Part shown: positions 29,054-50,624 of the stretch, in pieces
Layout of the letters: each line of letters starts with the position of its first letter
How positions within the stretch are numbered: position 1 is the first letter of the stretch
Source of the DNA: Alphaproteobacteria bacterium
GTDB taxonomy: Bacteria; Pseudomonadota; Alphaproteobacteria; JBFXJJ01
DNA: 64,000 nucleotides
Assembly: GCA_050175015.1 (NCBI GenBank)
Contig: JBFXJJ010000008.1
Location: 12,415 to 76,414 of the forward strand
Direction: 5' to 3'
Notes under the pieces: model-generated
What the model saw: only the letters and a program-made list of their open reading frames with translations
What the model was told of the DNA's origin: nothing
Database searches by the model: none
Program-made: the position numbers and the translations under genes

Positions 29054-29190
29054 AACCCTCTACGTCTCTACAAGTGTTGATAACTGCGACTTACAGAGAA
29101 AATAACCCGCTACACAAAATTTATGATGTAGAGGGTTCGCTTAGAGCGTTTGTCATTGGTTTTGCTGGCTTGTAGCAAGGTAGAGGGTTG
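29054..29190. repeat. Iteron cluster (CCCTCTAC / GTAGAGGG), copy 1
   Basis: CCCTCTACGTCTCTACAA followed by inverted GTAGAGGG copies at 29127 and 29181, plus a degenerate CCCGCTAC. Homologous to 48711-48845. Confidence 0.5.
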
Positions 29191-29194
29191 AGGT

Positions 29195-29494
29195 TTAAGC
29201 AACCTTGTTGTAAGGAACAATCGCTTCAAGTTCGCTTGCTATCTTTCTTTTGGTTTTGATAAGCTCAAAATCTTCTTGAATGCCTAAAAAATAGCCTTCG
29301 GACAAACCAAAATATTTAGTAAGTCTTAAATCGGTATCTGCGGTTATGCCTCTCTTACCATTGATAATATCGCTAATGCGGTTTTGAGGTATCCCCAGAG
29401 CCTTCGCAAGAGAATTTTGAGATAATCTTAAGGGCTCTATAAACTCTTCCTGTAAGACTTCGCCAATGTGGGGTATGTCGATATATTTTTCCAT
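29195..29494 (-). CDS. higA: HigA-family antitoxin (XRE-type HTH)
   Basis: 99 aa. LAKALGIPQNRISDIINGKRGITADTDLRL HTH. Sits downstream of the toxin, as in higBA. Confidence 0.8.
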   Translation of the reverse strand: MEKYIDIPHIGEVLQEEFIEPLRLSQNSLAKALGIPQNRISDIINGKRGITADTDLRLTKYFGLSEGYFLGIQEDFELIKTKRKIASELEAIVPYNKVA

Positions 29495-29564
29495 TTTGAT
29501 AAACCCTTAAAAATAAAACCTTATTAGTTATATATAATACAGATAACATATAAAGTCAAGATTT

Positions 29565-29846
29565 TTAGTGATAATCAACAATTTCAACATTATGAGCGTC
29601 TTTGTCCTGCCAAACAAAACATATTCGCCATTTGTCGTTTATTCTGATTGAATGTTGCTCTTTTCTATCGCCTTTCAATGCCTCAAGATTGTTAGATGGA
29701 GGGATTTTTAAGTCCTCAATCCTTTTAGCCCTATTTATCATCGCAAGCTTGATTATAGCTCTTCTTTGAATATCAAAAGGAAGCTTTTTTGAGGTTTCTC
29801 CGTGCCAAATCTTGGCTGTTTCTTTGCATTTAAAAGATACTATCAT
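29565..29846 (-). CDS. higB: HigB-family toxin (RelE/ParE superfamily killer protein)
   Basis: 93 aa. ...WRICFVWQDKDAHNVEIVDYH C-terminus typical of HigB. Confidence 0.8.
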   Translation of the reverse strand: MIVSFKCKETAKIWHGETSKKLPFDIQRRAIIKLAMINRAKRIEDLKIPPSNNLEALKGDRKEQHSIRINDKWRICFVWQDKDAHNVEIVDYH

Positions 29847-32800
29847 TTTTTAACATTCTCTACGGCAACAATAACTTCGCTTTTGACTTGTTTTGCGTTT
29901 TGTTCGATTGCATCAAGATAGTTTTCACCTAATTGTCCTTTTATAAACTCAATTTCTTTAATAAAAGCAGTGATTTCTTTTTCGCTACTCTGATTGCCTA
30001 TTTCCTGAGAAGAAAGTCTCCTTAATGAATATTGAGATAAGGTTTTATATTCTCTTAAATCCTTAATCAAAACTCTTATAAATGATGACAAACTGCTAAG
30101 CCTATCCTCATAAAAACGTATAGATGCATTAAGATTATTTATAGCTTTAGTTTCAAGTGAGTTTTCGTTGCTTTTATGATGAAATTTAGGCTTCTTTTCT
30201 TTGATGTTTTCGTATGTATCCCAAAACATATCAGAATGTTTGATTTTAGGTTCAGTTTGTTTGCATTCAATATTAGGCAACAGGCTTTCAATATTTATAT
30301 CAAAAATATCAGGCTTTTTATCTCCTTCAACCTTTGCTAGTTGAACAAAAAACCCTAACGCTTTTTTTCTAACTACAATGACTTGATTTTCTTTAAAGTT
30401 TTTAGCCGTCTTAACTCTGTTAGGCAGATATTTAATCTTTTTAAAAATTTCAGGGTATTCTATCCTAATATCCTCAATTTTATTTCTAATTTTGGTGATG
30501 ATGCTTTCTTCTTCATTATCTTCAGGGTTTGAATTTATGCGTTTAAAAAGCTCTGAAGCAGAAGGAATTTCATCTTGGGTAAAGACTTTTGAATCTTCAC
30601 CAAGCGTATTATGAATAAGAAACATTTTCTGGCTTGCGATTTCTTTACTTTTTATAACATCAGCACCTTTTAGGGTTGGAAAGAAGTTGCAGATATAAAG
30701 CTCATCAAAAACCTTTTTGCCAATACGGTTAATTCTTCCGATCCTTTGAATAACCCTAGTTGGGTTCCAAGGAATATCATAATTTATGATTGTTCCTGCT
30801 CGATTTAGATTGAAGCCTTCAGAAAGCTTATCGCTGGCAATAAGAATGGAGTAATTATCTTCCTGTTTGCTTTTAGCAATGCTTGCATCAAAATTTTTAT
30901 AAAGTGTTTCAGCCGTTTTTTTGTTTAAATCACCAGTAAAGGAAAAAACTTTGTTAGGAAAAGCATTTTCAATCGTTTCCTTAAGGTGAGCAACTGTATC
31001 TAAATACTCGGTAAAAACAATAAGTTTGCGGTTTTGCTCTTTTTTTATACTTTCTTTTAAAAAATCAATTAGCTTTGCCCTTTTAGGATCAGAATTTGCT
31101 AAATCAAGATTATCTATTTCTTTTTTTATTTTAGCAAACAAGGCTAAATCACTATCTATATCTTTTAAGAATTGATTTTTATTATAAAAACTATTGATGT
31201 CATAAATTCGGTTATTTTTTGGAGCTTTCTTATCGAGCAGTTCTTCAGCAAATTTTTCTAAGTGTTCTTCAATAGTATCTTCATCTTCAGAGTAAATTTT
31301 ATTAATCAGCTTTCTATCAAGAATATATTTGCCATTTGAATTTTCGATAAACTCTTTAATTTTGATATGGGCTTTTTCAAAGTTTTCAATACTTTTTTTG
31401 AACGCTCCAAAAGAGCTTTCAAACCGTTTTACAAGGAGTCTTCTCATAAAGTCATATAAGTTTCTTTGTTGTTGATATTCCCTGTTATCATCTTGGTTTA
31501 AGTCTTCAAGATTAAGTTTTTTCTCATAGTTAAATGGCTGATAAATTGCCCCTTTAAATTCCCCCACTTCTGCAAAATACTCTTTAATGACCTTGTCGTA
31601 AAATTCTGATTGCTTTTCGTTTAACTCAAAAAGCAATTCTTGAGGGTCTTTAACCTTTGAAAGTTCTTTAACCTCTGTTCGATATTGATAATCGTTTTTA
31701 AGGTCTATTCGGTTTCTTCTAATTAGAATTGGCTCAATAATCTGCCTGATTTCGTTTGATAGTTCGCTTAAGCGGTTTTTAACTTTTTTAATATCGGCAT
31801 ATTCTTCTTTAAAAAGCTCAAAATATTGCTTTTTAGATTTGGCAAGTTTTTCAATATCGTTAGAGTTATGATACCTAGAAACATAAGCAAGTTTGTTAAA
31901 AAGGTTTTCATAGCTTTTAAATCTAGCTTCAATGTTATCATCAAGTGTTATTAGAGATTTTCCTGGAACGATAAAAAGTTTAAGGAGAGAGAATATATCC
32001 GCAGGGCTGTTATTAAATGGTGTGGCGGTTAGCAAAATCACAATTTTGTTACGACAAATCATGTTTAAATATTCATAATCTTGCGTATCTTGATTGCGGA
32101 AACGATGAGCTTCATCAATAACCACAACTTCAATATCCTTACCTTGATTATTCATATATTCAGCAATTTCTTCAAGCTTGCCTGTTGACCTAACCTCCCA
32201 GTCAAAGAGTTCAAAATCACTTTTGTATTTTTGCCAGCCAGCGTTAGCATTAGCATCGCCAATTAGTCCAGGAGGGCAGATAATCATTCCTCTTTTGCCA
32301 ATATTCTTGGCAATGGCACTTGCTATAATCGATTTTCCAAGCCCCACCACATCGGCAATAATAACGCCATTATAGTTTTCGATAATGGTTAGGGCTTGAT
32401 TGACGGCATCAAGCTGATAGGAATAAGTCTTATAGCCCTTATCTTCTAAAATTCTGATGACTTGAGGTTTTATTTTTCTTTGTTCTTGAAGGTCTAAATA
32501 GGTTTTTAAGATATAAGCATACGCTTCAAAAGGCGTAACATTTGCAACTTGAGATTTATTGTTTAGAAAATCGATTAAAAATTGCTTCCTTGCATTATCT
32601 TCAGTAATTTTAACAGAGGTTTCCCAAAGCTCATCAAAGTAGCTTTCTGCATCTTCGGTGCCATAATCAGAAATTTCAACATTAAACTCGTTTTGTTTTT
32701 CAAGTCCTGCTTTGGTTAGATTGCTAGAGCCCGTAATAAACTTAGTATCAGAAATATGCTTTAACTGGTCATTGATTTTGAAAAGATAAAGTTTTGCATG

Positions 32801-33238
32801 GTTTGGCTCTAGGGTTTTTCTGATATGAAGCTTATCTTCTAAAATAAGTTTTAAGAAAAATTCTGCTTGTTCAAAAAAGTCTCGGTTGTCAAGGTCTTCA
32901 TTGTTAAGGGCTTTGTCTAAAGATGCAAAAAAATCATCAGCTTTTTCGGCATTAGAAACATCAGAATTTGAGCCTGCAAACTCGCATATCTTGCCAAGAA
33001 AACTATCGACTTCAAGTCCAACTAGAATTTTAACTGTAATGTTATCTTGTTCTTTGAGGCTTTCGTATAATTCTTTAAGTCCTGAGAAATAGAAAAAACC
33101 AACTAAAAACTTAAGCTCTTTGCTGGAGGTAACAAGCTGTTTTATTCTTGTTTTAAGATTTTTGGTATTTTTTTGATTGGTGATGAAGTTATTGGTCATT
33201 GTCTTTTGCTCGTTGAATTTTGGGGAAGTGTTTATCAA
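29843..33238 (-). CDS. Fusion protein: N-terminal phospholipase-D-family (HKD) nuclease domain plus SNF2-family helicase (SNF2_N + Helicase_C)
   Basis: 1131 aa. HKD motif HAKLYLFKIND...FITGSSNLT. Helicase motif I VVGLGKS, motif II VVIDEAHRFRN, motif VI RVIQRIGRINRIG. Confidence 0.8.
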   Translation of the reverse strand: MINTSPKFNEQKTMTNNFITNQKNTKNLKTRIKQLVTSSKELKFLVGFFYFSGLKELYESLKEQDNITVKILVGLEVDSFLGKICEFAGSNSDVSNAEKADDFFASLDKALNNEDLDNRDFFEQAEFFLKLILEDKLHIRKTLEPNHAKLYLFKINDQLKHISDTKFITGSSNLTKAGLEKQNEFNVEISDYGTEDAESYFDELWETSVKITEDNARKQFLIDFLNNKSQVANVTPFEAYAYILKTYLDLQEQRKIKPQVIRILEDKGYKTYSYQLDAVNQALTIIENYNGVIIADVVGLGKSIIASAIAKNIGKRGMIICPPGLIGDANANAGWQKYKSDFELFDWEVRSTGKLEEIAEYMNNQGKDIEVVVIDEAHRFRNQDTQDYEYLNMICRNKIVILLTATPFNNSPADIFSLLKLFIVPGKSLITLDDNIEARFKSYENLFNKLAYVSRYHNSNDIEKLAKSKKQYFELFKEEYADIKKVKNRLSELSNEIRQIIEPILIRRNRIDLKNDYQYRTEVKELSKVKDPQELLFELNEKQSEFYDKVIKEYFAEVGEFKGAIYQPFNYEKKLNLEDLNQDDNREYQQQRNLYDFMRRLLVKRFESSFGAFKKSIENFEKAHIKIKEFIENSNGKYILDRKLINKIYSEDEDTIEEHLEKFAEELLDKKAPKNNRIYDINSFYNKNQFLKDIDSDLALFAKIKKEIDNLDLANSDPKRAKLIDFLKESIKKEQNRKLIVFTEYLDTVAHLKETIENAFPNKVFSFTGDLNKKTAETLYKNFDASIAKSKQEDNYSILIASDKLSEGFNLNRAGTIINYDIPWNPTRVIQRIGRINRIGKKVFDELYICNFFPTLKGADVIKSKEIASQKMFLIHNTLGEDSKVFTQDEIPSASELFKRINSNPEDNEEESIITKIRNKIEDIRIEYPEIFKKIKYLPNRVKTAKNFKENQVIVVRKKALGFFVQLAKVEGDKKPDIFDINIESLLPNIECKQTEPKIKHSDMFWDTYENIKEKKPKFHHKSNENSLETKAINNLNASIRFYEDRLSSLSSFIRVLIKDLREYKTLSQYSLRRLSSQEIGNQSSEKEITAFIKEIEFIKGQLGENYLDAIEQNAKQVKSEVIVAVENVKK

Positions 33239-34646
33239 TTCCTAATGTCTGATATATGATTGTTTTTAAAACCAAATCTAATCTGTTTGATAGCATACTT
33301 AAAGCTTCCCAGTTTAATGTTTCATTTTTAAAATAAAAAGTGGTGGATATTTCAGAAGAAGATAACTTTCTAGGTCTACCGTTTTTATATGGGTGCGTGA
33401 TAAGGTTTCTAATAAGAGAAACTTGTTTTTTAATATATTCTTTATAACCATATTCAGGAAATTCTTCAGGATAAAGAGTACGTTTTATCATGCTTTTATG
33501 CCAGTCTCCACATAATCCCCCATAAATAAAAATGGTTTCAAAATTATCATTATTTATAAGCTCTAGCCCATTTTTAACATCAACGCCTGATTTGTTTTTT
33601 TTATGTTCAATGTTGCCGATAACTTCTAAAGCTTGAATTTGTGAAATAAGGTAAGTATCTAAAAAATTGTTTTCTTTGCTTAAAATTGTAACGATTAAAA
33701 ATCTTAACTTATTAAAATTATCAAACCATTTTTGCATAACAGCTTTTAAAGCATTTTTTATATCATCATAAGGAATATCTAAATCTAAATAAACGTAATC
33801 TTTTTCGTTTTTAATATTTGGGTTTATAAAATAATAATCATAGCCATTACAATATTTTTTAATCTCTAAATTTTGATTGCATAACAAGGAGAAAAAAGCA
33901 TTTATCTTAAAAATAGTTTGCTTATAAAAATCTAAAGATTGCTCTTCTTCTGTTTCAACACGAATGTAGGTGTCGTTATAAAAACGGCTTTCAAGAATAT
34001 TTTCATAAGAAATACCACTCTTTGAGAATATTGTTATAAAGCATTTAGCATTATCTATGATAATATCAAATTTATTAACTTCCCTTGGAATATTGATTTT
34101 TAAAAATTCTGCATTATCACTGCTTGTTTTGTTTGATTCAGAATTTAAATATTCTAGTCTAAAATATTTACCAAGCCATAAAAATTTATCAAGATTATCT
34201 ATATAAACATCTAAACTTTTAATTTTATCATCTTTTTTTAAAAACTTATCTTTTTTAGGTTTTTTGTATATTTTTGCTAGTATTTTTTTTTCAGAATCAT
34301 CTTCTATATTTGCTAAAACGCTATCTATTTTAGGGTGATGATATACTTCTTTTAAATAAAATTTTTCAAAATTTATATCTGTTTTTTCCCCACCTGTTGT
34401 TGAGGAATTGATAAAGGTAAAATAAAAAAGCTGGTTTGAATAAGATGCCGAATTATTTCTAAAAACACCAAATAATTCAGCCCCGCCAAAACCATAGCGG
34501 CATAATTTTTTAACATCTGTTTCGTTTAAGGTTAGTCTTGGCTCGCCGTCCTTAAATATCAAGATTGCAGATATTTTCTTTTTTGTTATTTTTTTTGGGA
34601 ATGGTTCATAAACAAAACCTTCGTAAATTCCATTTAAATCAACCAT
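33189..34646 (-). CDS. Hypothetical protein with C-terminal HEPN-type Rx4H motif (Abi-like)
   Basis: 485 aa. SLIRNLITHPYKNGRP near the C-terminus. Overlaps the PLD-SNF2 gene start by 50 nt. Confidence 0.4.
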   Translation of the reverse strand: MVDLNGIYEGFVYEPFPKKITKKKISAILIFKDGEPRLTLNETDVKKLCRYGFGGAELFGVFRNNSASYSNQLFYFTFINSSTTGGEKTDINFEKFYLKEVYHHPKIDSVLANIEDDSEKKILAKIYKKPKKDKFLKKDDKIKSLDVYIDNLDKFLWLGKYFRLEYLNSESNKTSSDNAEFLKINIPREVNKFDIIIDNAKCFITIFSKSGISYENILESRFYNDTYIRVETEEEQSLDFYKQTIFKINAFFSLLCNQNLEIKKYCNGYDYYFINPNIKNEKDYVYLDLDIPYDDIKNALKAVMQKWFDNFNKLRFLIVTILSKENNFLDTYLISQIQALEVIGNIEHKKNKSGVDVKNGLELINNDNFETIFIYGGLCGDWHKSMIKRTLYPEEFPEYGYKEYIKKQVSLIRNLITHPYKNGRPRKLSSSEISTTFYFKNETLNWEALSMLSNRLDLVLKTIIYQTLGIDKHFPKIQRAKDNDQ

Positions 34647-34685
34647 TTTTACACACTTTTGGCATTTTTTTGATTGGTGATGAAG

Positions 34686-36422
34686 TTAGTCATATTTTAA
34701 ATCTATTTTAATTCCTAATAATTTTTCTGTATCGCTATTATCGGTCAGTTTAAGAATTATGTTATCATTAATTAGTTTTTGTTTTTCTCCGTCACTTATT
34801 TCAGTAATGTCATCAATCTGATTTTGGTTAAGAGTAAGTATGTATTGTTTGTTATGAGTATTAAAAAGATTGTTAGCTTCAGATAACATAGAAATTTTTT
34901 GTCTTGGGTCAATATCACTAAAAAGACGATTGTCATGAAATAAAAAATCTATTTTATGCCTGCTTCCCATAAACAATAAGGTTAAATCATAACAAAATAT
35001 TTTAGCACTTCCTATTCCGTCAGAGGAATCACTTTCAATTTTTGCGTCAAAATCATATCTTAATTGATTAGTTCCGCTATTGTTTTTAACAGTAATTCCT
35101 GATGTTGCATCAGGGTATATTTTTTTAGCCAGCCTTCTAAAAAAGCCGTCCATATTTTTATCAGAGTTTTCCTCTGTTGAGTTAAGATAATCAACTGTTT
35201 TCTGTTCTTCTTCAACAAACTGTTTCTTTATATTAAGCTCTTTATTTTCATACTCTTTTAATAAGCTTTCATATTTTAAATAATCATTTTTTTGATTCTT
35301 TTTATCGCTAAGTTTGTTGTTCAGTTTTAAAACCACATCAACCGCATTATGAGCATTAAGATATTGCAATTTCTGGTCTAATTTTTTCTCCCAATCTTTT
35401 TTGTCATTATTAAAAGCTGTCAGATTGTTTTGAATAGCCAGTTTTTGTTCGGCAAGCCTTTTGGCTCTGTTTGATAACAATTGCTTATTAAAAACTTCTA
35501 ACTCATCTAAGGTTTTAGATAAATTGTTACTAAAAATTATCCGAGCTTCTTCATATATTGACGTTATTTTTTCTTTGCTTAAGTCTGGAGTGTTTTTTAG
35601 GCTTTGCTCAATGTTTTTTATTTGATATGAGCTTGTAGCAATTTGATTGTTGATATTATCTAATTGTTGCTTTATTTGATTCGCTTCCTGCTCTGTTTGG
35701 TAATAATCTTCAGCAACTTTTGTTTCATTAAGTTTATGCTCTAACTCTTTTATTTCTTCTTCCAAATTTTTCTTTGCAAGCCCAAGGTCTTTAGAGCCAA
35801 TAAAAAATTCTTTTAATACAGGGTCTTTTTTTATCTGCTTGGTTAAATTGTTTATATTATCTAAATCTTTCTTTAGCATCTTTTTTGTTTGAATAAGTCC
35901 AACATCTAATCCCAACAGAAAAGCATTGTTTAGCAATTTTTGATATTCTGTTCCTTTCTTTCTACCGTCAGGATCAGCAAAATTAGAATACGCACCCTTA
36001 GTTCTTCTTATAAAAAAGGGGATTAAAGTTCTAAAAGTTAGATATTGAATTCCAGATGGAATTTCAAAACAAAGCTTTTGCATTTTTTTATTAAAATTAT
36101 CAACCGACAACTCTTCTTTATTCATAAAAATTTTATTATAGTTATCTATAGCACGTTCAACTTTATAATTTTCTCCAGCTATTTCAAATTCAAGATAAAA
36201 AATCCAATTAACGAGTTTTTCTAGAAAATTACCTTGAGGCGTTGCACCTAAGCAAAAATGAATTATCTCTATCATCAAAGATTTACCAACACCATTATAG
36301 GTTTTATCTTTTGATTCGTTGGAGGTATCTTTTTTGCAGGCAACAATAATATTTAAACCCGTTTTTTTAAACTCAACAGTTTTAAAGGTATCTTTGTTTG
36401 CTGATAACGAAATTAAACGCAT
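34686..36422 (-). CDS. SMC/RecN-like coiled-coil ABC ATPase (Lamassu LmuB-like)
   Basis: 578 aa. N-terminal Walker A NGVGKSLMIEI, long coiled-coil middle, C-terminal FHDNRLFSDIDPRQ signature/D-loop-like segment. Confidence 0.5.
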   Translation of the reverse strand: MRLISLSANKDTFKTVEFKKTGLNIIVACKKDTSNESKDKTYNGVGKSLMIEIIHFCLGATPQGNFLEKLVNWIFYLEFEIAGENYKVERAIDNYNKIFMNKEELSVDNFNKKMQKLCFEIPSGIQYLTFRTLIPFFIRRTKGAYSNFADPDGRKKGTEYQKLLNNAFLLGLDVGLIQTKKMLKKDLDNINNLTKQIKKDPVLKEFFIGSKDLGLAKKNLEEEIKELEHKLNETKVAEDYYQTEQEANQIKQQLDNINNQIATSSYQIKNIEQSLKNTPDLSKEKITSIYEEARIIFSNNLSKTLDELEVFNKQLLSNRAKRLAEQKLAIQNNLTAFNNDKKDWEKKLDQKLQYLNAHNAVDVVLKLNNKLSDKKNQKNDYLKYESLLKEYENKELNIKKQFVEEEQKTVDYLNSTEENSDKNMDGFFRRLAKKIYPDATSGITVKNNSGTNQLRYDFDAKIESDSSDGIGSAKIFCYDLTLLFMGSRHKIDFLFHDNRLFSDIDPRQKISMLSEANNLFNTHNKQYILTLNQNQIDDITEISDGEKQKLINDNIILKLTDNSDTEKLLGIKIDLKYD

Positions 36423-36655
36423 TTGCTTATTATTCCTTGTTTTTCTTCAATAACGCCAATCGAAAAAAGAAAAACTATAGTTAAAATCAAATTGTCGAAA
36501 CTATGCTTGGCGAAGTAGTTTCCGCTTTTAAAATCAAATTGATATTTTTTCCATAAATCGTCAATGGTTTTAGGTGTTTTGAGCTCTTCAATGAGATAAC
36601 TACCTAAACCGAGTAGGGACTGTGAAAAATTCAAATGTTTTTTTGGTATAAGCAT
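36413..36655 (-). CDS. Small hypothetical protein (LmuC-like middle gene?)
   Basis: 80-aa ORF overlapping the ATPase start by 10 nt and abutting the upstream gene. Confidence 0.3.
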   Translation of the reverse strand: MLIPKKHLNFSQSLLGLGSYLIEELKTPKTIDDLWKKYQFDFKSGNYFAKHSFDNLILTIVFLFSIGVIEEKQGIISKCV

Positions 36656-36657
36656 AA

Positions 36658-37593
36658 TTACTCTTCTGGTTCTTCAAAAATATCGCAGCTTTCAAAATAT
36701 TTTGCCATAATTTGAATAGCCGCTGGTTGATATACATTGTTACTTTTAGGACATATATTTTCTAAAATCCCAAAAAATATATTATCACCTATGTTGTTTT
36801 TATCAATCATTTCATTTTCGAATTTAAGTTTGTTTTGTTGATAAATATCGCTTAAGGTTTTTTTTGTTTCTTCCGCTAATATGCTTTCTCTTTCCTCAAA
36901 AAACTTGTCTATTTGACCTATTGCAGAATAGGCGTTATCTAGCAAATTTTTTACGTCTAGGCTGATATTATTAATTTTGATTTTTTTATTCCAATCAGGG
37001 GCGATTAATTTGTCATCTAAAATCGTTTTAACGGGGATTTGTGCGATATGGTTTATTACTTCATCAAGAATAGAGTTATTAAGAATGTGCATTTTTGAAG
37101 GGTCTGGCAAATACCCTACAACATCTAACATTTGTTCTTCTGTTAAATCATTAAAAACCATATTTCCTAAATCTTTTGCTGTTAAAAAGCTACATTCTTT
37201 TAGGTTGTTAGTTGTTTTAATGATTCCAATTTTTATCAAACCGTCAGCATTAACACCCTTATATTTATCATTAACAACAAAAAAGAAATTCTCTATCGGC
37301 GACCAATATTTTTTCAATCCGTCAAAATCTGTTTCTAGTTTATTTATCGCTTCAGGATATGATTTGGTTATGTCTTCAGGAGCATAAACTTGATAATAGG
37401 TTGCTGTTTTTGTGTTGCAACCATCATTCTTTCGGTCTCCAATATTGCCCCAAGGTTTAAGTTGTTGGAAATCAGAATCTCTATAATTCATAATTTTGGT
37501 AAATATTTTTTCAAACTCACTGCCATCAGATTCATAAATTTTGTTTTGAAAAATTTTAATAGCATAAGCTTTTTCTTGAGGAGTCATATTCAT
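36658..37593 (-). CDS. Hypothetical protein (candidate effector partner of the SMC-like ATPase, LmuA-like position)
   Basis: 311-aa ORF, first in the 311-aa / 80-aa / ATPase order that mirrors lmuA-lmuC-lmuB (ddmABC) organisation. Confidence 0.3.
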   Translation of the reverse strand: MNMTPQEKAYAIKIFQNKIYESDGSEFEKIFTKIMNYRDSDFQQLKPWGNIGDRKNDGCNTKTATYYQVYAPEDITKSYPEAINKLETDFDGLKKYWSPIENFFFVVNDKYKGVNADGLIKIGIIKTTNNLKECSFLTAKDLGNMVFNDLTEEQMLDVVGYLPDPSKMHILNNSILDEVINHIAQIPVKTILDDKLIAPDWNKKIKINNISLDVKNLLDNAYSAIGQIDKFFEERESILAEETKKTLSDIYQQNKLKFENEMIDKNNIGDNIFFGILENICPKSNNVYQPAAIQIMAKYFESCDIFEEPEE

Positions 37594-42172: not shown

Positions 42173-42282
42173 TTTTTACCTGTGTTTTAATTGATTGTTT
42201 GAACATTTAATTAGATAGCATAAACTAATATTTATTTCTATAAAAATGGTAATCATTAATTGCTAGTTATTTTTAGTTTTCC

Positions 42283-42455: not shown

Positions 42456-42689
42456 GGGTTTGATACTGGCTTAATTATGCAAAAATTGAGAAAGAACTGG
42501 ATTTTTTGAGAAAGAATAACAAAAATTGAAAAACTTGGAGAAACTCCTTATTTTTCAACGGTTTTAAGGGGTTAAAATTGATAAAATTTGCAAAAGAAGT
42601 GGACTCTTGTGGAATCTCTTAAATCCTCTTAAACTAGCTGATAAAATGTGATAATTTTTAAGGAAAGCCTTGTTTTTCAGAGCTTTAGC

Positions 42690-42980
42690 TTACAGGTTAA
42701 GATTTTTGCTCATTTTATTATGCAAAACCCTTACTATGAAGATATTGTCCTTTGAGACTTTGTAAAAAACATTATGGCTTTGAATTGTGTGTTGAAAATA
42801 GCCCTGCCTTATATAATCAACGGATACGCCAATATAAGGGTTTTCCTGCAAATTTAAAAAATGCCTTTTTAATTCGTTTATGTAGAGGTTGGCTTGCTCT
42901 TTGCCAAAAACATTAAAGGAATAAAGCCAAATATCTCTAATATCTTTTTCGGCTTTATTTGAAATTGTTAATTTTAACAT
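42690..42980 (-). CDS. parE: ParE-family toxin
   Basis: 96 aa, RelE/ParE fold pattern. Start overlaps the parD stop. Confidence 0.75.
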   Translation of the reverse strand: MLKLTISNKAEKDIRDIWLYSFNVFGKEQANLYINELKRHFLNLQENPYIGVSVDYIRQGYFQHTIQSHNVFYKVSKDNIFIVRVLHNKMSKNLNL

Positions 42981-43207
42981 CAGTTATGTTCTTTGTTTAA
43001 AGCTTCGATAATATCATCAATGCTATTAGGGCTTATTCCGCTTTGTTCTCCTTCAATTAAAGCCTGTCTTAAAACTTCAATTTCTTCGATATTATGGCGG
43101 ATTAAATCTCTAACATAATCGCTGGCGTTTGCATATTTGCCAGTTTCAACTTGAGTTTCGACCCATGATTTCATGGTGTTTGGTAAAGATATATTCATTG
43201 TTGCCAT
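42980..43207 (-). CDS. parD: ParD-family antitoxin (RHH/CopG-like)
   Basis: 75 aa. YANASDYVRDLIRHN motif typical of ParD. Confidence 0.7.
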   Translation of the reverse strand: MATMNISLPNTMKSWVETQVETGKYANASDYVRDLIRHNIEEIEVLRQALIEGEQSGISPNSIDDIIEALNKEHN

Positions 43208-43288
43208 TTTTCTGTCCTCCTAGATTTATAATGGCATAGATTGGCAAAGATTGTCAATATTATGAGGTTTAAAGTTAAAATATTTTTC

Positions 43289-43327
43289 ACATACCCATAC
43301 CGAAGCCGTAGCTTTTGGATTTTATTA
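43289..43327 (-). pseudogene. Remnant of a relaxase gene 3' end
   Basis: TCACATACCCATACCGAAGCC(G/A)TAGCTTTTGGATTTT is shared with 46507-46545, where it encodes the C-terminus ...KSYGFGMGM* of the MobA relaxase. Confidence 0.4.
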
Positions 43328-43453
43328 TTGCCTCAAGCTTGCGGCAACAAGAGGAGTTCCGTTGTTTTCAATTGCTTAAGCTTTAGATTTTTTCAGAAAT
43401 GGAATCTTAAAGACTCACTTAAACACTCCTAGACTCTCAAAGATTGTTTTAAA

Positions 43454-43747
43454 CTAATGCTGTTTAGCAGTAACAGAAAAAGAAAGCCCTAATGCGTTAA
43501 TAACCTGCATAATGGTTGCAAATTCAGGGTTGCCATCTAGTGATAACGCTTTGTAAAGACTGGCTCTACCTAATTTTGACTTCCTAGCAATCTCAGTCAT
43601 ACCTTTTGCTCTGGCAATATCTCCTAAAGCGGCTGTAACTAAAGCAGGATCATCTTCTTCCATTGCGGCAGAAAGATAAGCAATAATATCTTCATCAGTT
43701 TTAAGATGTTCTGCAACATCAAAAGGTCTGGTTTTAGTTTTAGTCAT
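43454..43747 (-). CDS. Addiction-module antidote protein (HTH, TIGR02684-like)
   Basis: 97 aa. ...GMTEIARKSKLGRASLYKALSLDGNPEFATI HTH. Sits downstream of the cognate killer. Confidence 0.7.
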   Translation of the reverse strand: MTKTKTRPFDVAEHLKTDEDIIAYLSAAMEEDDPALVTAALGDIARAKGMTEIARKSKLGRASLYKALSLDGNPEFATIMQVINALGLSFSVTAKQH

Positions 43748-43760
43748 ATTACAAAATCCT

Positions 43761-44084
43761 TTATAAGTTCTCTGCGAGCTTAATTGCTTTTAATATATCT
43801 TTTTCTTGAGTTCTTTTGTCTCCGCCAGCCAGCAAAATAACAATCTCTTCGCCCTTTTTGGTAAAATAAATTCTATAGCCAGCTCCATAATCTATCTTAA
43901 GTTCAGAAACCCCAGAACCTACAGACTTGAAATCGCCAAAATTACCTAAAGAAACACGGCGGATTCTAACATTAATTCTTGCCCTAGCTTCTTTGTTCTT
44001 TAGTTTTGCATACCATTTGGCAAAAACTTCAGTCTGTTCTATTTGTATCATTATAACTGTATCCCACAAAAGACAGTTTTGCAA
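43761..44084 (-). CDS. Addiction-module killer protein (RelE-like, TIGR02683-like)
   Basis: 107 aa. ...GSGVSELKIDYGAGYRIYFTKKGEEIVILLAGGDK pattern. Confidence 0.7.
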   Translation of the reverse strand: MQNCLLWDTVIMIQIEQTEVFAKWYAKLKNKEARARINVRIRRVSLGNFGDFKSVGSGVSELKIDYGAGYRIYFTKKGEEIVILLAGGDKRTQEKDILKAIKLAENL

Positions 44085-44192
44085 TATGATTTTTGTATTG
44101 TAAGTGTTTTTAATATAATAATGAGTTTAAAAAACACCTCAATAAATTTGATTAAAGAGGTGATTTTTTATTTTTAAAATCAACTTTAGTTT

Positions 44193-46355
44193 TTACGTTT
44201 TTCTAATTTTTTCAATGAAGCTTGCAACTTCGTTTTTAAGCTCTGCAGACTTTTCAGATAATTCTTTAGAGGCTGATAAAACTTGATTAGCAGCCGAACC
44301 AGCTTCACCTGCCGCTTGAGTTACACCACTAATATTGCTTGATACTTCTGCTGTTCCTTGTGAGGCTTGCTCAACATTTCTTGAAATCTCCGCAGTTGCC
44401 GCTCCTTGTTCTTCAACTGCACTTGCTATTGCTGTTGAAATCTCATCAATCTTATTAATAACCTCGCCAATTCTAGTTATAGCTTCAACTGCATTATTAG
44501 TCTTTTCTTGAACATCAGAAATTTGATTAGAGATATCTTCAGTTGCTTTAGCTGTTTGATTAGCTAAGTTTTTAACCTCACTTGCAACAACAGCAAAACC
44601 TTTACCAGCATCTCCAGCTCTTGCTGCTTCAATTGTAGCATTAAGAGCAAGTAAATTAGTTTGATTTGCAATATCTGTAATAAGTTCAACCACCTCACTA
44701 ATTCTTTGAGCTGATTCTGCTAAACTTCCAACAATTTCATTTGTTGAATGAATTTCATTAACAGCTTGTTTTGCAATCTCGGATTCTTCAGAAACCTGCC
44801 TTGAAATTTCAGAAATAGAAGCTGATAATTCCTCAGATGCGGCTGCAACTGTTTGAACATTTGCGGCTGCCTGCTCAGAGGCTGCTGCAACGGCTGTTGC
44901 TTGTTGAGCCGTTTCTTCTGATATAGCTGACATACTCTCAGCTGTTGAATTTAATTCTGTTGAAGCACTTGATACCGCATCAACAATACCCATAACTGCC
45001 TTTTCAAAATCATCAGCAAGTTTTTGCATCATTACTTTTTTTTCTTCTTCTTCGGCTTTTTGTTTTAATCTTTCTTGTTCTGCTTCTAGTTCTTTGGTTT
45101 TAACCGCATTTTCTTTGAAAACCTCAACAGATTTTGCCATATCGCCAATTTCATCAAAACGATCTTTTCCTTCAATGATAGTGTTTAAATCACCACCAGA
45201 AATACTAAGCATATTTTCTTGTAATTTAAGCAAGACTGATAATTGCTTTCTAAAAAAGAACGCTAAAATAATTGCAATTAGAATAATGATAGCAATAGAT
45301 GTGTAAGTAATTTCTTTAATAGTATCATTAACAATATTTAAAAATAAAGATTGCTCTAATCCTGTAAAATAAATACCTATTATTTCGCCTTGATTGTTTC
45401 TAATGGGATCATAAGCAGTAAAATAAGAACGTCCTAAAATATCAGCCTCACCAACAAAATATTTTCCTTCAAGCATAGCATCATAAACTGCACCTCTGGC
45501 AAGCAATGTGCCAACAGCTCTTTTACCATCTGCTTGAATAATATTTGTTGAAATGCGTTGAAACTCGGTTTGACCTCCTCTTTCAATTCTTTGAAAAATT
45601 GTTGCAACTCCGCCTGTCATTTCTGCAACCATATCAACAATTTCAAAATTATCATTTACTATATGAGCATCTGCAAAATCACTTTGAGGCAAGCCAACAA
45701 AATAAATGCCTATTACTTCTCCTTGATTATTTCTAATAGGATCATAAGCAGTAAAATAAGAACGACCTAAAATATCAGCTTCGCCAACAAAATATCTGCC
45801 AGCTATCATTGCATCATAAACTGCACCTCTGGCAAGTAATGTGCCAACAGCTCTATTGCCATTATCCATAATAATATTTGTTGAAATACGTTGAAATTCT
45901 GTTTGTCCTCCTCGTTCAATTCTTTGAAAAATTGTTGCAACTCCACCAGATATTTCTTGAACTCTATCCACTATTTCAAAATTATTATTAACAATATGAT
46001 TGCCAACAACAAGATTACCCTCTTCAATTCTTACATTTCTTCCTTTGCTATTGAAAACATCTTTTAAGATATTCATAGACGTTGTTTGATTATCATTAGC
46101 GATTCTTCTTAAAACCGCATTTCCATCAATAACCATTTGCCCGTTTTGAATTGAAACTCTTTCACCTTTACTGTTAAAGGTTGCTTGCAAAACCTGCATT
46201 GCAGTGTTTTGATTGCAGTTTGCCATTTCAAGCATTTGCTCTCTAACACTTCTAGAGGTTTGATAAGTTAATGCCGCCCCTAGAATAATTAAGCTTAAAG
46301 TGGAGCTTAAAACTATTTTGCTTGAAAATTTAAGTTTTTTGATAAAATCTAACAT
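44193..46355 (-). CDS. Methyl-accepting chemotaxis protein with a tandemly duplicated periplasmic sensor module
   Basis: 720 aa. HAMP plus the MCP signalling domain (highly conserved ...[18 protein letters not shown]... region). Two near-identical 111-aa sensor repeats. Confidence 0.85.
45366..46031. repeat. Near-perfect 333-bp tandem duplication inside the MCP sensor-coding region
   Basis: Copy 1 at 45366-45698 and copy 2 at 45699-46031. In frame (111 aa), a few percent divergence. Confidence 0.8.
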
Positions 46356-46425
46356 TTTGATTTCCTTAAAAAAGATTAATATTTTTGTGCCATTTTACCT
46401 TTTTTATTTAATAGTTTTCAAGTTT

Positions 46426-46465
<40 letters not shown>

Positions 46466-46506
46466 GAAAATTCAAGGATTTTTCAATTATTTTTTTTGTA
46501 ATTTAT

Positions 46507-48036
46507 TCACATACCCATACCGAAGCCATAGCTTTTGGATTTTTTTAAGGCAAGTTCTTTTTCTTCTAGGTGTTCTTTATAACTTTTTTGCATTTTTTGA
46601 TAAAACTCATTGTTGGTTTTGAGGGTTTCTTTAATGGCTTTGTAAGTTTCATCATCTTTTTTAAGCTCGGGTTTTAGCTCTTTCATCATTGCATCAATGG
46701 TTTTGCTTTTGGCTCGCTCGGCATTGAGCGTATCAGATATTTTATCATAAACAAAAGAAGGGATAATAACATTGCCGCCAAGTTCTTCAATGGCAACAAC
46801 CTTTGGAACTGCATCTTTGCCATCTTCAAGATAATAGAATTTGTTTTCATTGTCATACTTAGCAAGGCTTTTAATCGCTTCTTGTGCTTCTGGTTTTTGA
46901 GGCATTTCAACATAAAAAATGGCTTTTTGTTTTTCTTCAGGTTTAACTTCGAGTTTTATTTCTGGTTTATGGGGTTCTGTTATGTGTCTGCTGGTTTTGC
47001 CAGTATTAAGAAACAAGGCGTTTATTAGTTTTTTCTGAGCAACAATAATTGCCATTGCAAATGGATCTTTTAAGGCTTCAGCCATTAAAAAATCTTTCCA
47101 AGTGTAAAAGGTTTTTTTGAGCAAGGATTGCTCTTTTGGCTTCTTTTTAACGGCTTGGTATTTCTGCCATAAAATAGGCGTGTTAGGGTGTTTGGTAAGT
47201 GGCTTTTCGGTATAGGTTCTTTTGGGTTCAACAATATTTTTTGATTCCTCAAATTTACCTAATCTTTTTTCCAAGGAGTTTTTAGAAAAACTCCTGTCTA
47301 AATCAGATGCTTTAATTGCAACTTTTTCATCTTTAGAAACTATCGCTAAACCGTTGCCTCTTTTTTTAAGAAGCAAACCAGCTTCTTCAAAAACATTATG
47401 TAAATCTTGCCATTTTTGGGCTTGGTTTAATGCTTTGGTTAAGGGTTCTTTTTGCTCTTTAACATAAGAATAAAAGCTTTGTTGCCAAGTTTTAGCCTCA
47501 AAATCTCTGGCTTTCTCGTGAGGTTTTTCATAATTTGGCTCTTTGGTTTTTTCAATACCGTTATCCGTTTTAAGATTATATTTCTTCTCCATATCTCGGC
47601 ATACTTTTGAGCGTTTGTAATAATCGTTTGATAAGGTCGCAACGTTGAAAGTTTCAGGGTTTATTTTGTTATAGGCAATATGCATATGAAAGTTATCGGT
47701 GTTTTGATGCGTGCCGACAACTCTTTGATGGGTTTCTATCCCTAAGGCTTTGGCAAACTCGCATTCAATTGCTTTTAAGGTTTTTAAATCAGGTTTTTCA
47801 TCTTTAAAAGAAACTAATAAGTGATAGGTTTTATCAACTTTGCATCTGGTGTTTTTGCTTTGAGTGTTTTCAATATCAATAATGGCTAAATCTAAATCAT
47901 CAATGGTTTCGCCAGCAATTGAGTTTACTATCCAAAAATCAGATAGTTTTTCGCCTTCGTCTTCTGCACCTGCAATATATTTAGCAAGCCTTCTAAAACT
48001 GCTCTTTGTTGTTCTTGGAATATGCTTAGAAATCAT
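46507..48036 (-). CDS. MobA/VirD2-family relaxase
   Basis: 509 aa. N-terminal relaxase domain with the HMHIAYNKI His-rich motif (3-His metal site) and ...TYHLLVSF.... Confidence 0.7.
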   Translation of the reverse strand: MISKHIPRTTKSSFRRLAKYIAGAEDEGEKLSDFWIVNSIAGETIDDLDLAIIDIENTQSKNTRCKVDKTYHLLVSFKDEKPDLKTLKAIECEFAKALGIETHQRVVGTHQNTDNFHMHIAYNKINPETFNVATLSNDYYKRSKVCRDMEKKYNLKTDNGIEKTKEPNYEKPHEKARDFEAKTWQQSFYSYVKEQKEPLTKALNQAQKWQDLHNVFEEAGLLLKKRGNGLAIVSKDEKVAIKASDLDRSFSKNSLEKRLGKFEESKNIVEPKRTYTEKPLTKHPNTPILWQKYQAVKKKPKEQSLLKKTFYTWKDFLMAEALKDPFAMAIIVAQKKLINALFLNTGKTSRHITEPHKPEIKLEVKPEEKQKAIFYVEMPQKPEAQEAIKSLAKYDNENKFYYLEDGKDAVPKVVAIEELGGNVIIPSFVYDKISDTLNAERAKSKTIDAMMKELKPELKKDDETYKAIKETLKTNNEFYQKMQKSYKEHLEEKELALKKSKSYGFGMGM

Positions 48037-48353
48037 AGCTCCTCAATCTTAGCCTTTAAAATTGCTCGTAAATCTGCAATAGCGTTAATATGTTTGTTTA
48101 ACTCTTCAGGATAAAAATTTTCATCAAGAGCAAGTTTAAACAGATTACCCAGCCTTGCTAAATCAGCATTGATTTTTAATAAATCAGATATAGCTTGTTG
48201 CTTGCCAATGTTAGGCAAGGGAATATTTAAAACCGCAAATCTTAAAAGCTCTGATTGTGATAAATTATAAGTTTTAGCTAACTCAACCAGTTTATCTTTT
48301 TCTTGCCTATTAAGATAAACAAGGCTTGCTATGTTTCTTTTATCTGGTTTCAT
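48033..48353 (-). CDS. MobC-family mobilisation accessory protein
   Basis: 106 aa. Overlaps the relaxase start. ...LNRQEKDKLVELAKTYNLSQSELLRFAV... and a C-terminal coiled segment typical of MobC. Confidence 0.6.
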   Translation of the reverse strand: MKPDKRNIASLVYLNRQEKDKLVELAKTYNLSQSELLRFAVLNIPLPNIGKQQAISDLLKINADLARLGNLFKLALDENFYPEELNKHINAIADLRAILKAKIEEL

Positions 48354-48355
48354 GG

Positions 48356-48673
48356 CTAAAGCTCTTCATCAGGAATTTTTCTCTTTGGATCAAAATGAAA
48401 CTTTTTAATCTCGTGAGGATTATCAGAGCTTAATCTTTTTTCTTCTGCTTCTTTGCGGGCTAAAAGCCTTAAATCTTCAGGGTGCATAAAATCTTTTAGA
48501 TTGATGTGCTTTTTGATAAATCGATAAAAAGATGCTTTAGAGCAGGTTATTTCTCTTTTTTCCTTTAGCTCGTTATAAATGCTATGCCTTGTATAGCCTT
48601 GTTTAAGCAAAAGCCTGATTTTGGCAGTTTTTGCGATTAGTTCATATCTAACTTGGGCGTAATATTTAGTCAT
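48356..48673 (-). CDS. Small hypothetical DNA-binding protein (HTH-like)
   Basis: 105-aa ORF directly downstream of the iteron cluster. CSKASFYRFIKKH resembles a recognition helix. Confidence 0.3.
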   Translation of the reverse strand: MTKYYAQVRYELIAKTAKIRLLLKQGYTRHSIYNELKEKREITCSKASFYRFIKKHINLKDFMHPEDLRLLARKEAEEKRLSSDNPHEIKKFHFDPKRKIPDEEL

Positions 48674-50624
48674 TTTGGTTTCCTCCTAAATCTTGATGGT
48701 TAAAATTGCTACCCTCTACATATCTACAACTGTTGTTTTCCAATTGTTTGCTAAGATAAATTTTATTATCTGGTAGAGGGTTTGTAGAGGGTTGGTTATG
48801 ATTAAAGTTGTTGTTTTCTCTATGTTGTAGAGGGGTAGAGGGTTTAATCAGGTATCTGGAGAACGCATCTTTAAAATGCTCCTTGTGGTAACATTTTAAA
48901 TTTTTATCATTCATTCTTTTTTGATGAGACTTAATGCCAAAATCTTTTAAGATTGCGGATAATTGAAGCGGGGTTATCGGTTGATTAAATCGCCATTCAT
49001 TCCAAGGGCTTTCATCAATATCGGCAAGTTTTAAGCATAGCTCTTGAGAAGAAATAAAGCTTAATGGGTATTCTTTAAAAATATCTCTTATGTCGTTTAA
49101 CAAAAGGGTTTTAATCGAGCTGTCATCATCAGCATAACCAATACTATCTGTGGTGTTCATCGCTATATTGGCAAGTTCTAGCCAATCCCTCCCTGCAAGT
49201 TCAGCAATCGCTAAAAGAGGTCGCCAATTATCGGCGGTTCTATCATTTATCTGATTAGAGATTGTCGGGTCTGCTTCCTGAAGCTTTAAAAAGTTATCAT
49301 CTGCAAAACGACTGCATTTTTGTTTTATAATGTTAAACAAAGAGCTTTTATCGCCTCTTAAGCGTTCAACAGTTTCTCCAGCAAATTTTCTTCGCATCGT
49401 GATAATAATGCTTCTATCAGCTATGGTATCAGCGAGCTTGCCAATTCCTGCAATTGCACAAGGGCAGAAACAAGAAAAGATTCTAACGCTATAACCTTTG
49501 TGGGCTTCAACATTGCGGATTACTCCGCCGCCTTTAATATGCCCTTCGTTAATAATGCCTCTAAGTTCCTCTTTTTCTTTTAAAAAAGCATCGGCTTCAT
49601 CAATAAGTAAGGTTGGGGCATAAGCCTCAATGGTTCTAAACATTGCCGAAGCTGTAAGACTTGATACTCTTAAAGATTTACAACAAAGAAAATCCAAAAG
49701 CATAAGTAGGGTTGTTTTGCCGCATCTTTTTTCAGGGGAATGAATAAGAAGTCTTGGCGAATGCTCAAAAGCTTCAAAAGAGTAGGTGAACAAAACCCAT
49801 AGAGCTAAAGTGGTTTCGGCATTTTCTGGCAAAACAAGATATTTTTTAAAGATGTCTCGAAGTTCATTTAAAACCTCAGCCCCATTAACGGGTTTTGAAT
49901 ATGGAGCTGGTCTTGGCAAACTAAGCTCTCTTCCTGCTAGAGCTTTGGTTTCTGTATTTTTTGTTTCTAAAAGAGTTCTTAAAAAACTAATGGTTTTATT
50001 GTTGGGGATTTCATCAGCTAAATCCCAGCCTTCAGGAAAATAATCAGGAATTTTAACAATCGCTACTTCATTCTGTTTTTTTAAGATTTTAAAAAGTTTA
50101 AGCATAGCTTGTTTGCCAGCTTCATCATTGTCAGCCCAAAGTTTAATTTTACGGTTTTGTAAAATACTCCAATTAGCTTTTGAGATAGCATTAGCACCGC
50201 CAGCCCAAGTTAAAACAACATAATCAGGAAAAAGAAGCCTTGCACTATCAACAGTTTTTTCTCCTTCAACAATTAAGATGTTATCTTTTGGTCTTGCTTC
50301 CAAAAGTTCTTCGCCATAAAGAGGTCTTGGTTCAGAAAAGCCCTTCATGTGCCAAGCTGTTTTGCCATTTTCTAGTTTGCAATAAATAAAAGGTCTAAAT
50401 GTCTTTTGTTTAGTGCCATTAACTTTTTCATATCTGGCAATATAACCGACAAGCTTATTTTTAGCGTTTTTATAAGCATAAACATTTGTTGGCTCATTCC
50501 ATTCCGCAATTTTAAAAGAAGGCTTTGGAGCATCACTAGGAACAGGAATAATCGATATTACTTCTGGCTCTTTTGTTAAGATGTTTGTTTTAGAAACATC
50601 TATTGGCTTAAAAAAATTAGTCAT
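48666..50624 (-). CDS. Primase/replication protein (Toprim domain plus C-terminal P-loop NTPase, P4 alpha / D5-like)
   Basis: 652 aa. Toprim acidic motifs LIVEGEKTVDSA...LWADNDEAGKQA. Walker A SPEKRCGKTTL and Walker B LLIDEAD. The low-complexity C-terminal tail overlaps the iterons. Confidence 0.7.
   Translation of the reverse strand: MTNFFKPIDVSKTNILTKEPEVISIIPVPSDAPKPSFKIAEWNEPTNVYAYKNAKNKLVGYIARYEKVNGTKQKTFRPFIYCKLENGKTAWHMKGFSEPRPLYGEELLEARPKDNILIVEGEKTVDSARLLFPDYVVLTWAGGANAISKANWSILQNRKIKLWADNDEAGKQAMLKLFKILKKQNEVAIVKIPDYFPEGWDLADEIPNNKTISFLRTLLETKNTETKALAGRELSLPRPAPYSKPVNGAEVLNELRDIFKKYLVLPENAETTLALWVLFTYSFEAFEHSPRLLIHSPEKRCGKTTLLMLLDFLCCKSLRVSSLTASAMFRTIEAYAPTLLIDEADAFLKEKEELRGIINEGHIKGGGVIRNVEAHKGYSVRIFSCFCPCAIAGIGKLADTIADRSIIITMRRKFAGETVERLRGDKSSLFNIIKQKCSRFADDNFLKLQEADPTISNQINDRTADNWRPLLAIAELAGRDWLELANIAMNTTDSIGYADDDSSIKTLLLNDIRDIFKEYPLSFISSQELCLKLADIDESPWNEWRFNQPITPLQLSAILKDFGIKSHQKRMNDKNLKCYHKEHFKDAFSRYLIKPSTPLQHRENNNFNHNQPSTNPLPDNKIYLSKQLENNSCRYVEGSNFNHQDLGGNQND
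48711..48845. repeat. Iteron cluster (CCCTCTAC / GTAGAGGG), copy 2, adjacent to the primase gene; candidate replication origin
   Basis: CCCTCTACATATCTACAA, then GTAGAGGG at 48773, 48784, 48825 and 48834. Same architecture as 29054-29190. Confidence 0.55.

Follow-up and report, generated by a model that had tools for sequence, protein, structure and literature searches.

A probable RepAM-type origin and a second iteron array in an integrative mobilizable element loaded with defence genes

Why does a single bacterial island carry two clusters of the same 8-bp repeat, 19.5 kb apart, with one of them lying inside the 3′ end of a primase gene? The question is raised by a 64-kb stretch of DNA from an alphaproteobacterial metagenome-assembled genome (MAG; contig JBFXJJ010000008.1 of assembly GCA_050175015.1, positions 12,415 to 76,414), which was analysed at its full length and is hereafter called the window; all positions below are counted from its first letter. 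A preliminary description of the two clusters (the distant one, here cluster A, and the one at the primase gene, cluster B) had likened them to ori and crr, the separated replication sites of satellite phage P4. The best overall explanation, which we hold with moderate confidence, is that cluster B is the replication origin and cluster A an auxiliary or copy-control site of an integrative mobilizable element (IME). Apart from one detail, the locus is at present a well-explained replication module, and it is not a new kind of system.

An iteron array at the end of a probable initiator gene

The exact repeat CCCTCTAC has eight matches in the window, at 29056 and 48712 on the plus strand and at 29128, 29180, 48773, 48784, 48827 and 48835 on the minus strand, whereas dinucleotide-preserving shuffles of the same DNA average 0.34 matches, with 2 as the highest count. 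None of the eight copies lies outside the two clusters, which are real iteron arrays, as had been reported. Allowing one mismatch adds CCCGCTAC at 29106 (plus strand) in cluster A and nothing but background elsewhere, and neither this search nor another with 7-mers found a third cluster in the window. A 20-nt motif of cluster B had no match in a scan of viral contigs, and a loose pattern, CCCTCTACN{25,55}CCCTCTAC, run over genome contigs returned 120 stretches, nearly all of them chance pairs and none coding for island proteins. Exact look-ups of the HigA protein of the window and of the proteins P0003 and P0004, which belong to the closest relatives, gave no record.

Cluster B (48712 to 48842, minus strand) lies within the final ~60 codons of the open reading frame (ORF) of a Toprim primase (48666 to 50624, minus strand). 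Both its coordinates and its make-up of one forward and four inverted exact copies had been given correctly, as had the overlap with the tail of the primase gene. The five exact CCCTCTAC units occupy codons ~594–638 of this 652-aa ORF. Read in the sense of the primase, the array starts with a pair of units (48842–48827), followed by a second pair (48791–48773), a spacer of 75% A+T and an inverted unit (48719–48712), beside which there is a degenerate partner, ATCTAC. The units extend to 8–10 bp (AACCCTCTAC), and stand in direct and inverted orientation around the A+T-rich spacer. In the four closest proteins the peptides encoded by the iterons are conserved (KPSTPLQ, QPSTNPLP and CRYVEG) while the pieces between them vary, which indicates a constraint on the DNA and not on the protein; likewise, the iterons are kept while the spacers diverge between the window and locus L001, its closest retrievable relative. 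Folding of the arrays as single-stranded DNA yields hairpin z-scores of −4.9 for B, −4.2 for A and −6.0 for L001, values that are largely due to the inverted units themselves. The heptamer CTTGATG, which equals six of the seven positions of the pC194-like nick motif CTTGATA, expected of a RepAM-type replicon in an unpaired section of the hairpin, can be read by eye on the opposite strand, ~18 nt outside the last unit of cluster B; it is kept in L001, falls within the ribosome-binding region of the next gene and has no counterpart at cluster A.

The primase ORF encodes Toprim_2, DUF6371 and DUF3631 domains, the last of them (PF12307) matched over its full profile by residues 410–591 with 140 bits and E=9.3e-41. 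DUF3631 is the family of RepAM, the replication initiator of the actinomycete element pMEA300 (PMC3218068). A DnaG-like primase core is present in the AlphaFold model of the protein (mean predicted local distance difference test score, pLDDT, of 80.8), and the best Protein Data Bank matches of its P-loop domain are the helicase region of NrS-1, PriRep1, MCM, the poxvirus proteins D5/E5 and ORC, all of them replicative proteins of the superfamily 3 (SF3)/AAA+ type. In the same model, the C-terminal domain (504–591) adopts a helix-strand-helix followed by a β-hairpin wing, which corresponds to a winged helix, and the tail encoded by the iterons (594–652) is disordered, with a pLDDT of ~30. We infer that this Toprim-DUF3631 fusion is the iteron-binding initiator. 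Residues ~567–571 of the wing follow the iteron group of the element, with GTKR accompanying CGTCAC, GTIR accompanying CGCCAC and RQIR accompanying CGAAAC in a comparison made without phylogenetic correction, a pattern suggestive of a short wing segment that would set iteron specificity.

The coupling of array and initiator gene is found again across the relatives of the element. L001, 86% identical, carries six CCCTCTAC units with identical spacing and different spacers, and in a second relative (L002, 58% identical), which has no relaxase gene, the unit is another one, GCTACAA, at an unchanged place and with the layout preserved. A set of 79 usable windows at primase 3′ ends was assembled from the window element, these two loci and relatives obtained in a metagenome scan (32–86% identity); in 77% of them the 360 nt next to the end of the conserved domain contain a 7-mer at least four times, as against 6% of 1466 control windows, and loci from IMG/VR display the same 3′-end array pattern. 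Altogether, arrays accompany the primase/DUF3631 gene in ~100 loci, in keeping with the link between repeats and primase that had been suggested from the window alone. Since relaxase and NikA-like genes are found in one other locus only, L001, and the small gene next to cluster B in two, the repeats belong to the initiator and not to the transfer functions. The DUF5338-like product of that small gene was also considered as the repeat binder and rejected, its gene being present only in L001 and L002.

As a positive control, the 13.5-kb Streptomyces plasmid NZ_CP108827.1 (L225), which carries genes for a Prim-Pol, a DUF3631 protein, a helix-turn-helix (HTH) protein, an integrase and an FtsK-like Tra protein, contains 15 CCGCTAC copies, 13 of them gathered in a single array (positions 3595–3812 of L225) that starts in the last DUF3631 codons. 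A unit template, CCG-NN-AC(A), with variable central bases, is common to the family, and the repeat of the window is one variant of it. The unit of the Streptomyces plasmid, TCCGCTAC(C), is two bases away from CCCTCTAC, and its core is also found in L134, L178 and many other proteobacterial relatives, so that the template is conserved across phyla. On the biochemical side, purified RepAM from pMEA300 binds to 8-bp repeats of identical sequence within the 3′ end of the gene that encodes it (te Poele 2006, PMC2440964); these repeats can form a hairpin and are taken as the origin, a single 3′-end array being the described form, and the original work left rolling-circle and theta replication as alternatives (PMC2440964). 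From the identity of DUF3631 with RepAM, the anatomy of the array, the 3′-end arrays throughout the family and the array of the Streptomyces plasmid, it follows that cluster B is very likely the RepAM-type origin of the element. What is new at this site is the host group and the fusion to a DnaG-type primase; otherwise, the origin is of a known type.

A second array, probably for the same initiator

Cluster A (29056 to 29187, minus strand) has the orientation and, as had been noticed, the internal layout of cluster B. Its three perfect AACCCTCTAC units (29187–29180, 29135–29128 and, inverted, 29056–29063) match the extended 10-mer at 30 of 30 bases, with offsets of 52 and 72 bp, compared with 51 and 72 bp in both B and L001, and an extra inverted unit, CCCGCTAC, matches at seven of eight positions (29106–29113). 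When read in the direction of the primase gene, A, B and the origin of L001 can be aligned in register over ~150 nt. The similarity between A and B is limited to the ~135-bp array: the spacers show identities of 0.51 and 0.39 (shuffle means, 0.32 and 0.27; window against L001, 0.79 and 0.72), and the 60-nt flanks are at random level (0.27 and 0.23). A recent internal duplication of B was rejected as the source of A, given spacers near saturation and unrelated flanks. Judging from these comparisons, cluster A is to be regarded as a diverged second array for the initiator, in which the binding units and their geometry have been preserved. Upstream of it, the stop codon of the HigA gene (29195–29197) is 8 nt from the first unit, and on the other side a non-coding stretch of 77–88% A+T separates the array from orf164. 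The only informative homologue of orf164 sits beside a TIR gene in another, unrelated defence island, which places the neighbours of cluster A among the cargo; a part for orf164 as a replication accessory was rejected on the same grounds.

That cluster A has a present role in replication or copy control, as an auxiliary cis site, seems to us only slightly short of an even chance. In the mechanism we propose, the replication module is the operon formed by an AlpA-like gene, a zinc-finger ORF and the primase-RepAM (DUF3631) fusion. The C-terminal winged helix of the initiator would bind the units of cluster B, its SF3/AAA+-like ATPase would then melt the DNA or be loaded on it, and the DnaG-type domain would prime, allowing the excised circle to replicate. 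On this circle, A and B would bracket attP, the integrase gene and the replication operon on an arc of ~9.5 kb, with the cargo on the remaining arc of ~19.5 kb, an arrangement that resembles the flanking of the rep operon by arrays in other elements. Finally, the initiator could pair or loop A with B and either enhance or throttle initiation, for which P4 crr, P1 incA and R6K would be precedents. In the iteron plasmids P1 (incA), F (incC) and R6K (γ together with the α/β origins), an extra array of initiator sites apart from the origin acts through pairing or looping by the initiator, either in handcuffing control or in activation at a distance.

Second arrays were also looked for in loci of at least 7 kb, each of them scanned with its own unit consensus. 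Clear iterons and enough flanking sequence were available for ~43 elements, and five distinct elements, that of the window included, contain a second array. In L134/L137 it stands in direct orientation 9.7 kb upstream, where it follows the integrase gene immediately, and its A+T-rich spacer is clean. In L212 the copy is inverted together with its spacer and precedes the primase start by ~350 nt (arrays at 9200–9295 and 11585–11690), in L214 there is an inverted copy of ~125 bp at a distance of 4.2 kb, the two copies (7900–8012 and 12165–12280) flanking the replication operon, and in L221/L222 inverted triplets flank a gene that encodes DUF3631 only. The whole-array inverted duplicates around the primase gene or operon of L212 and L214, both of them phage-like contigs, are apparently undescribed for RepAM-family replicons. 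By their sequences, paired arrays can be said to recur in the family, though they are not required and vary in placement.

Several of these observations weigh against an active role of cluster A. Most relatives with 7–22 kb of sequence, as well as the complete Streptomyces RepAM plasmid, have one array only, so a second site is not needed for RepAM-type replication. Consequently, of the P4-like bipartite origin proposed in the preliminary description, the two-array layout stands, but not its generality (5 of ~43 elements, and none in the complete 13.5-kb RepAM plasmid), which speaks indirectly against a general need for both arrays in cis. Placement also differs, direct and distant in the window and L134, inverted and flanking rep in L212, L214 and L221, and the second arrays may not all share one function. 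Half of the units of cluster A are degraded (CTTGCTAC at D2, the fourth unit, D4, lost and GTCTCTAC at I1), and its setting among cargo genes also fits a decaying captured origin.

The idea of a captured origin leads to the main alternative. Cluster A might be what is left of the origin of another RepAM element, related to this one and of equal iteron specificity, that integrated in tandem at the same att site, a derivation of the array that we regard as possible but rather unlikely; equally doubtful is its continuation, in which later deletion or recombination removed the backbone from int to primase and left an array that binds the initiator and has no selected role. The restriction of the A-B similarity to the array, with spacers near saturation, fits divergence in separate elements better than recent duplication, and the degenerate units, the sufficiency of one array in most relatives, the presence of cargo on both flanks (HigBA on one, orf164 and Olokun on the other) and the composite nature of the region, where the element is nested in a tRNA-Arg island with its own integrase and 47-nt repeats, all point in the same direction. 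On the other hand, a relic would hardly be expected to retain three perfect 10-mers and a geometry within 1 bp, the array stands intact at 8 nt from the HigA stop codon, an unlikely endpoint for a random deletion, and the flanks of A show no trace of the small gene or of the 3′ end of a primase gene. An unselected extra iteron array would also be expected to interfere with the resident replicon, and paired arrays recur in four other lineages.

This recurrence leaves room for a stronger version of the preferred explanation, an auxiliary site at A, which we put forward tentatively and without expecting it to hold in full: paired arrays would be a recurrent, undescribed design of the RepAM family, in which the initiator loops A to B over the int-replication operon of the excised circle and thereby sets copy number or activates a second start site. 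Such a start site would lie beside the stretch of 77–88% A+T near A, and the looping would couple replication to the expression or in-situ amplification of the defence cargo located between the arrays and next to them.

Less probable still, and in our opinion improbable, is that the arrays are operators or roadblocks, with B controlling the small gene, nikA and the relaxase gene, and A controlling orf164 and oloAB, an equally improbable corollary being that the mobilization and defence modules would be coupled to the replication state; none of this would conflict with B as the origin. Both arrays are indeed directly upstream of co-directional genes, those on the B side overlap start to stop as in an operon, and in L212, L214 and L221 the second array occupies the 5′ region of the rep gene or operon, like the autoregulatory operators of iteron plasmids. 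A review of RepAM has also suggested that the binding site may regulate repAM or the xis gene downstream (PMC2440964). However, a search for sigma-70-like promoters gave none on the minus strand beside A and only a single weak candidate inside B; the full three-part geometry kept in A exceeds the needs of an operator, and orf164 and Olokun are unrelated cargo. Finally, sites for the relaxosome (oriT, the origin of transfer, with the NikA-like protein and the relaxase) or for the arms of integrase/excisionase are very improbable, for although B is directly upstream of the small gene, nikA and the relaxase gene, and inverted units can form hairpins, the arrays follow primase/DUF3631 in ~100 loci with relaxase and NikA in L001 only and an array without relaxase in L002, a co-occurrence by which oriT was rejected, while neither cluster is at an end of the element and a different repeat, TTGCCGCAccaTTGCCGCA, at both att sites fits the arm role and led to the rejection of the arrays in that role.

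The surrounding island

Both arrays belong to what its gene content identifies as a ~29.1-kb integrative mobilizable element loaded with defence genes (24.84–54.0 kb), with a tyrosine integrase, flanking direct repeats and a relaxase accompanied by its accessory protein. The minus strand carries every gene from 25 to 54 kb. From its 5′ side, the series starts with the tyrosine integrase gene (52441 to 53745, minus strand), whose product has an Arm-DNA-bind_3 N-terminal domain, and continues with an uncharacterised 397-aa ORF on the same strand and an HTH_17 (AlpA/excisionase-like) gene (50934 to 51176, minus strand), the first of the replication operon. Next comes a small ORF (50621 to 50941, minus strand), conserved in eight related loci, with a sub-threshold match to the CHC2 (DnaG-type) zinc finger and a stop that overlaps the start of the DnaG-type Toprim primase-DUF3631/RepAM fusion. 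Directly after cluster B there is a gene of 105 aa (48356 to 48673, minus strand), conserved only in L001 and L002; the small gene announced at this place exists, but its HTH label could not be confirmed, the sole match being to DUF5338 with 18.7 bits, below the cutoff of 25.9 bits. The overlap of its ATG with the primase stop suggests translational coupling. It is followed by the mobilization module (46507 to 48353, minus strand), made up of a NikA-like accessory gene (48033–48353) and a MOBP-type relaxase gene (46507–48036).

Stop and start codons overlap at all junctions from the AlpA-like gene to the relaxase gene (50934–50941, 50621–50624, 48666–48673, 48353–48356 and 48033–48036), and the ribosome-binding site of the 105-aa gene is within the primase tail. 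With this arrangement, the replication and mobilization genes look like one translationally coupled operon that would run through the origin.

After the relaxase gene, in descending coordinates, there are a chemoreceptor gene (methyl-accepting chemotaxis protein, MCP), two toxin-antitoxin pairs, the defence cargo, HigBA, cluster A, orf164 and Olokun. The defence cargo includes a PDC-S18-like gene, a type IIG restriction-methylase, an ABC-3C/PDC-M68 pair, an ApeA-domain protein and an SNF2+PLD helicase. The HigB/HigA toxin-antitoxin pair is at 29195 to 29846 (minus strand), and the cargo past cluster A (25056 to 28975, minus strand) comprises orf164 (28481–28975), OloA (26750–28465) and OloB (25056–26798), the last two forming the Olokun defence system. 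No genes for a conjugation pore (type IV secretion) were present among the annotated ORFs.

Two repeats were also observed around the chemoreceptor gene. A 45-nt direct repeat, 93% identical (43283–43327 and 46503–46547), brackets this gene together with a Gp49/HI1420 toxin-antitoxin pair, one of its copies overlapping the 3′ end of the relaxase gene, and looks like the scar of a cassette insertion. Within the gene itself, a 300-nt tandem duplication (45366–45665 and 45699–45998, 86% identical) corresponds to its two Cache-domain stretches.

The element is bounded by a direct att repeat of ~45 nt, with a left copy at 24836 to 24880 (plus strand), like the 3′ half of a tRNA, and a right copy at 53950 to 53997 (plus strand). 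Beside both att copies there is a repeat pair, TTGCCGCAccaTTGCCGCA (24950–24968 and 53813–53831), and these pairs probably form the arm sites of the integrase. The att repeats show a CTCATAA loop, a T arm and an ACCA-like end, as in tRNA 3′ halves; no intact tRNA was found at either of them with Rfam or ARAGORN, and the element seems to occupy a tRNA fragment within another island and not a live tRNA gene. As for this outer island, the last 47 nt (23225–23271) of a tRNA-Arg(CCG) gene (23192–23271) are repeated exactly at 63178–63224, a second tyrosine integrase gene (23633–24697, plus strand) is found just past the tRNA gene, and the region of 54.1–62.5 kb is taken up by further defence-like genes, for a zeta-toxin-like kinase, a sacsin/HATPase protein and a HEPN+SNF2 helicase, with housekeeping genes afterwards. 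The RepAM element can be described, on these boundaries, as nested in a larger tRNA-Arg island.

Replication after excision, as the preliminary description had imagined it, would find its parts here: integrase, AlpA-like gene, primase-initiator fusion, origin and att repeats. The proposed nature of a phage satellite or phage-inducible chromosomal island (PICI) is not supported, as the proteins scanned included none for packaging or interference, and what the element carries instead is a MOBP relaxase with a NikA-like gene, besides defence cargo amounting to ~20 kb. In particular, sid, psu, delta and cos were absent from the Pfam, PHROGs and PADLOC annotation of the island genes, in which not every small ORF was scanned, and none of the proteins scanned had a packaging-related PHROG match.

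The interest of the locus goes beyond this island. RepAM/DUF3631 initiators are common, with at least 2503 DUF3631 proteins at E≤1e-10, although what is known of their biochemistry comes from one study of an actinomycete element. The rule by which the origin lies inside the 3′ end of the initiator gene holds from Actinobacteria to Proteobacteria and phage-like contigs and, together with the CCG-NN-AC template and the candidate specificity segment, would make it easy to annotate the origins of many defence islands and mobilizable elements and to predict their incompatibility groups. If the second array were a true control site, the copy number reached after excision would affect both transfer and the dosage of defence genes.

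Comparison with known systems

The analogy with P4 is sound in its positional part. In the P4 record (NC_001609), alpha (4636–6969, minus strand) is directly followed on its 3′ side by crr (4291–4590), with ten 8-bp type 1 repeats, and ori (9086–9809), with six more, is 4.7 kb off. In the two systems alike, the units are of 8 bp and stand in either orientation, one array adjoins the 3′ end of the primase gene and another lies kilobases away, the protein has primase, helicase-like ATPase and C-terminal DNA-binding domains in this order, and an integrase gene with an arm-binding domain is close to an AlpA/Vis-like gene. The primase is nevertheless no homologue of P4 alpha by profile comparison (hhalign probability 0.5%, E=0.11), and only the domain logic is common. 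P4 also differs in the distance between arrays (4.7 kb, 19.5 kb here), in its size (11.6 kb, as against 29 kb), in its helper-exploitation genes of the sid, psu, delta and cos type, which were not found among the annotated genes of the island, and in that the second array is absent from most relatives of the window element.

PICIs and the Staphylococcus aureus pathogenicity islands (SaPIs) are organised as int, alpA/xis and primase-initiator genes with the origin directly 3′, where two sets of iterons flank an A+T-rich spacer (PMC6092414). The order of int, AlpA-like and primase genes, the origin 3′ of the initiator and the iterons around a spacer of 75% A+T are all shared by the element in the window. 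On the other hand, phage-interference, capsid-size and terS genes were not found among the proteins scanned, the ~29.1 kb of the element are about twice the usual size of a PICI (~10–15 kb), its initiator belongs to a different family, and it carries a relaxase, NikA, an MCP, toxin-antitoxin pairs and a large defence cargo. As for the iteron plasmids P1, F and R6K, their initiators are unrelated to that of the element.

There are also differences from the RepAM elements of actinomycetes. The initiator of the window is fused to a DnaG-type Toprim primase and accompanied by a separate zinc-finger ORF, whereas actinomycete elements have a separate Prim-Pol gene; its host is represented by an alphaproteobacterial MAG; a MOBP relaxase takes the place of the FtsK-like Tra protein; and the second array, 19.5 kb away, is apparently undescribed for RepAM elements. 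With pMEA300, in turn, the element shares a homologous DUF3631 initiator domain, identical 8-bp units in direct and inverted orientation inside the 3′ end of the initiator gene, a repeat region capable of forming a hairpin and the condition of an integrated island with integrase and excisionase-like genes that could also exist as a replicating circle. Even the unit follows the same template, CCGCTAC in the Streptomyces plasmid and many proteobacterial relatives, CCCGCTAC/CCCTCTAC here. P4, the origins of PICIs and the control arrays of P1, F and R6K are functional analogues of this replication module, and the family to which it is assigned is that of RepAM.

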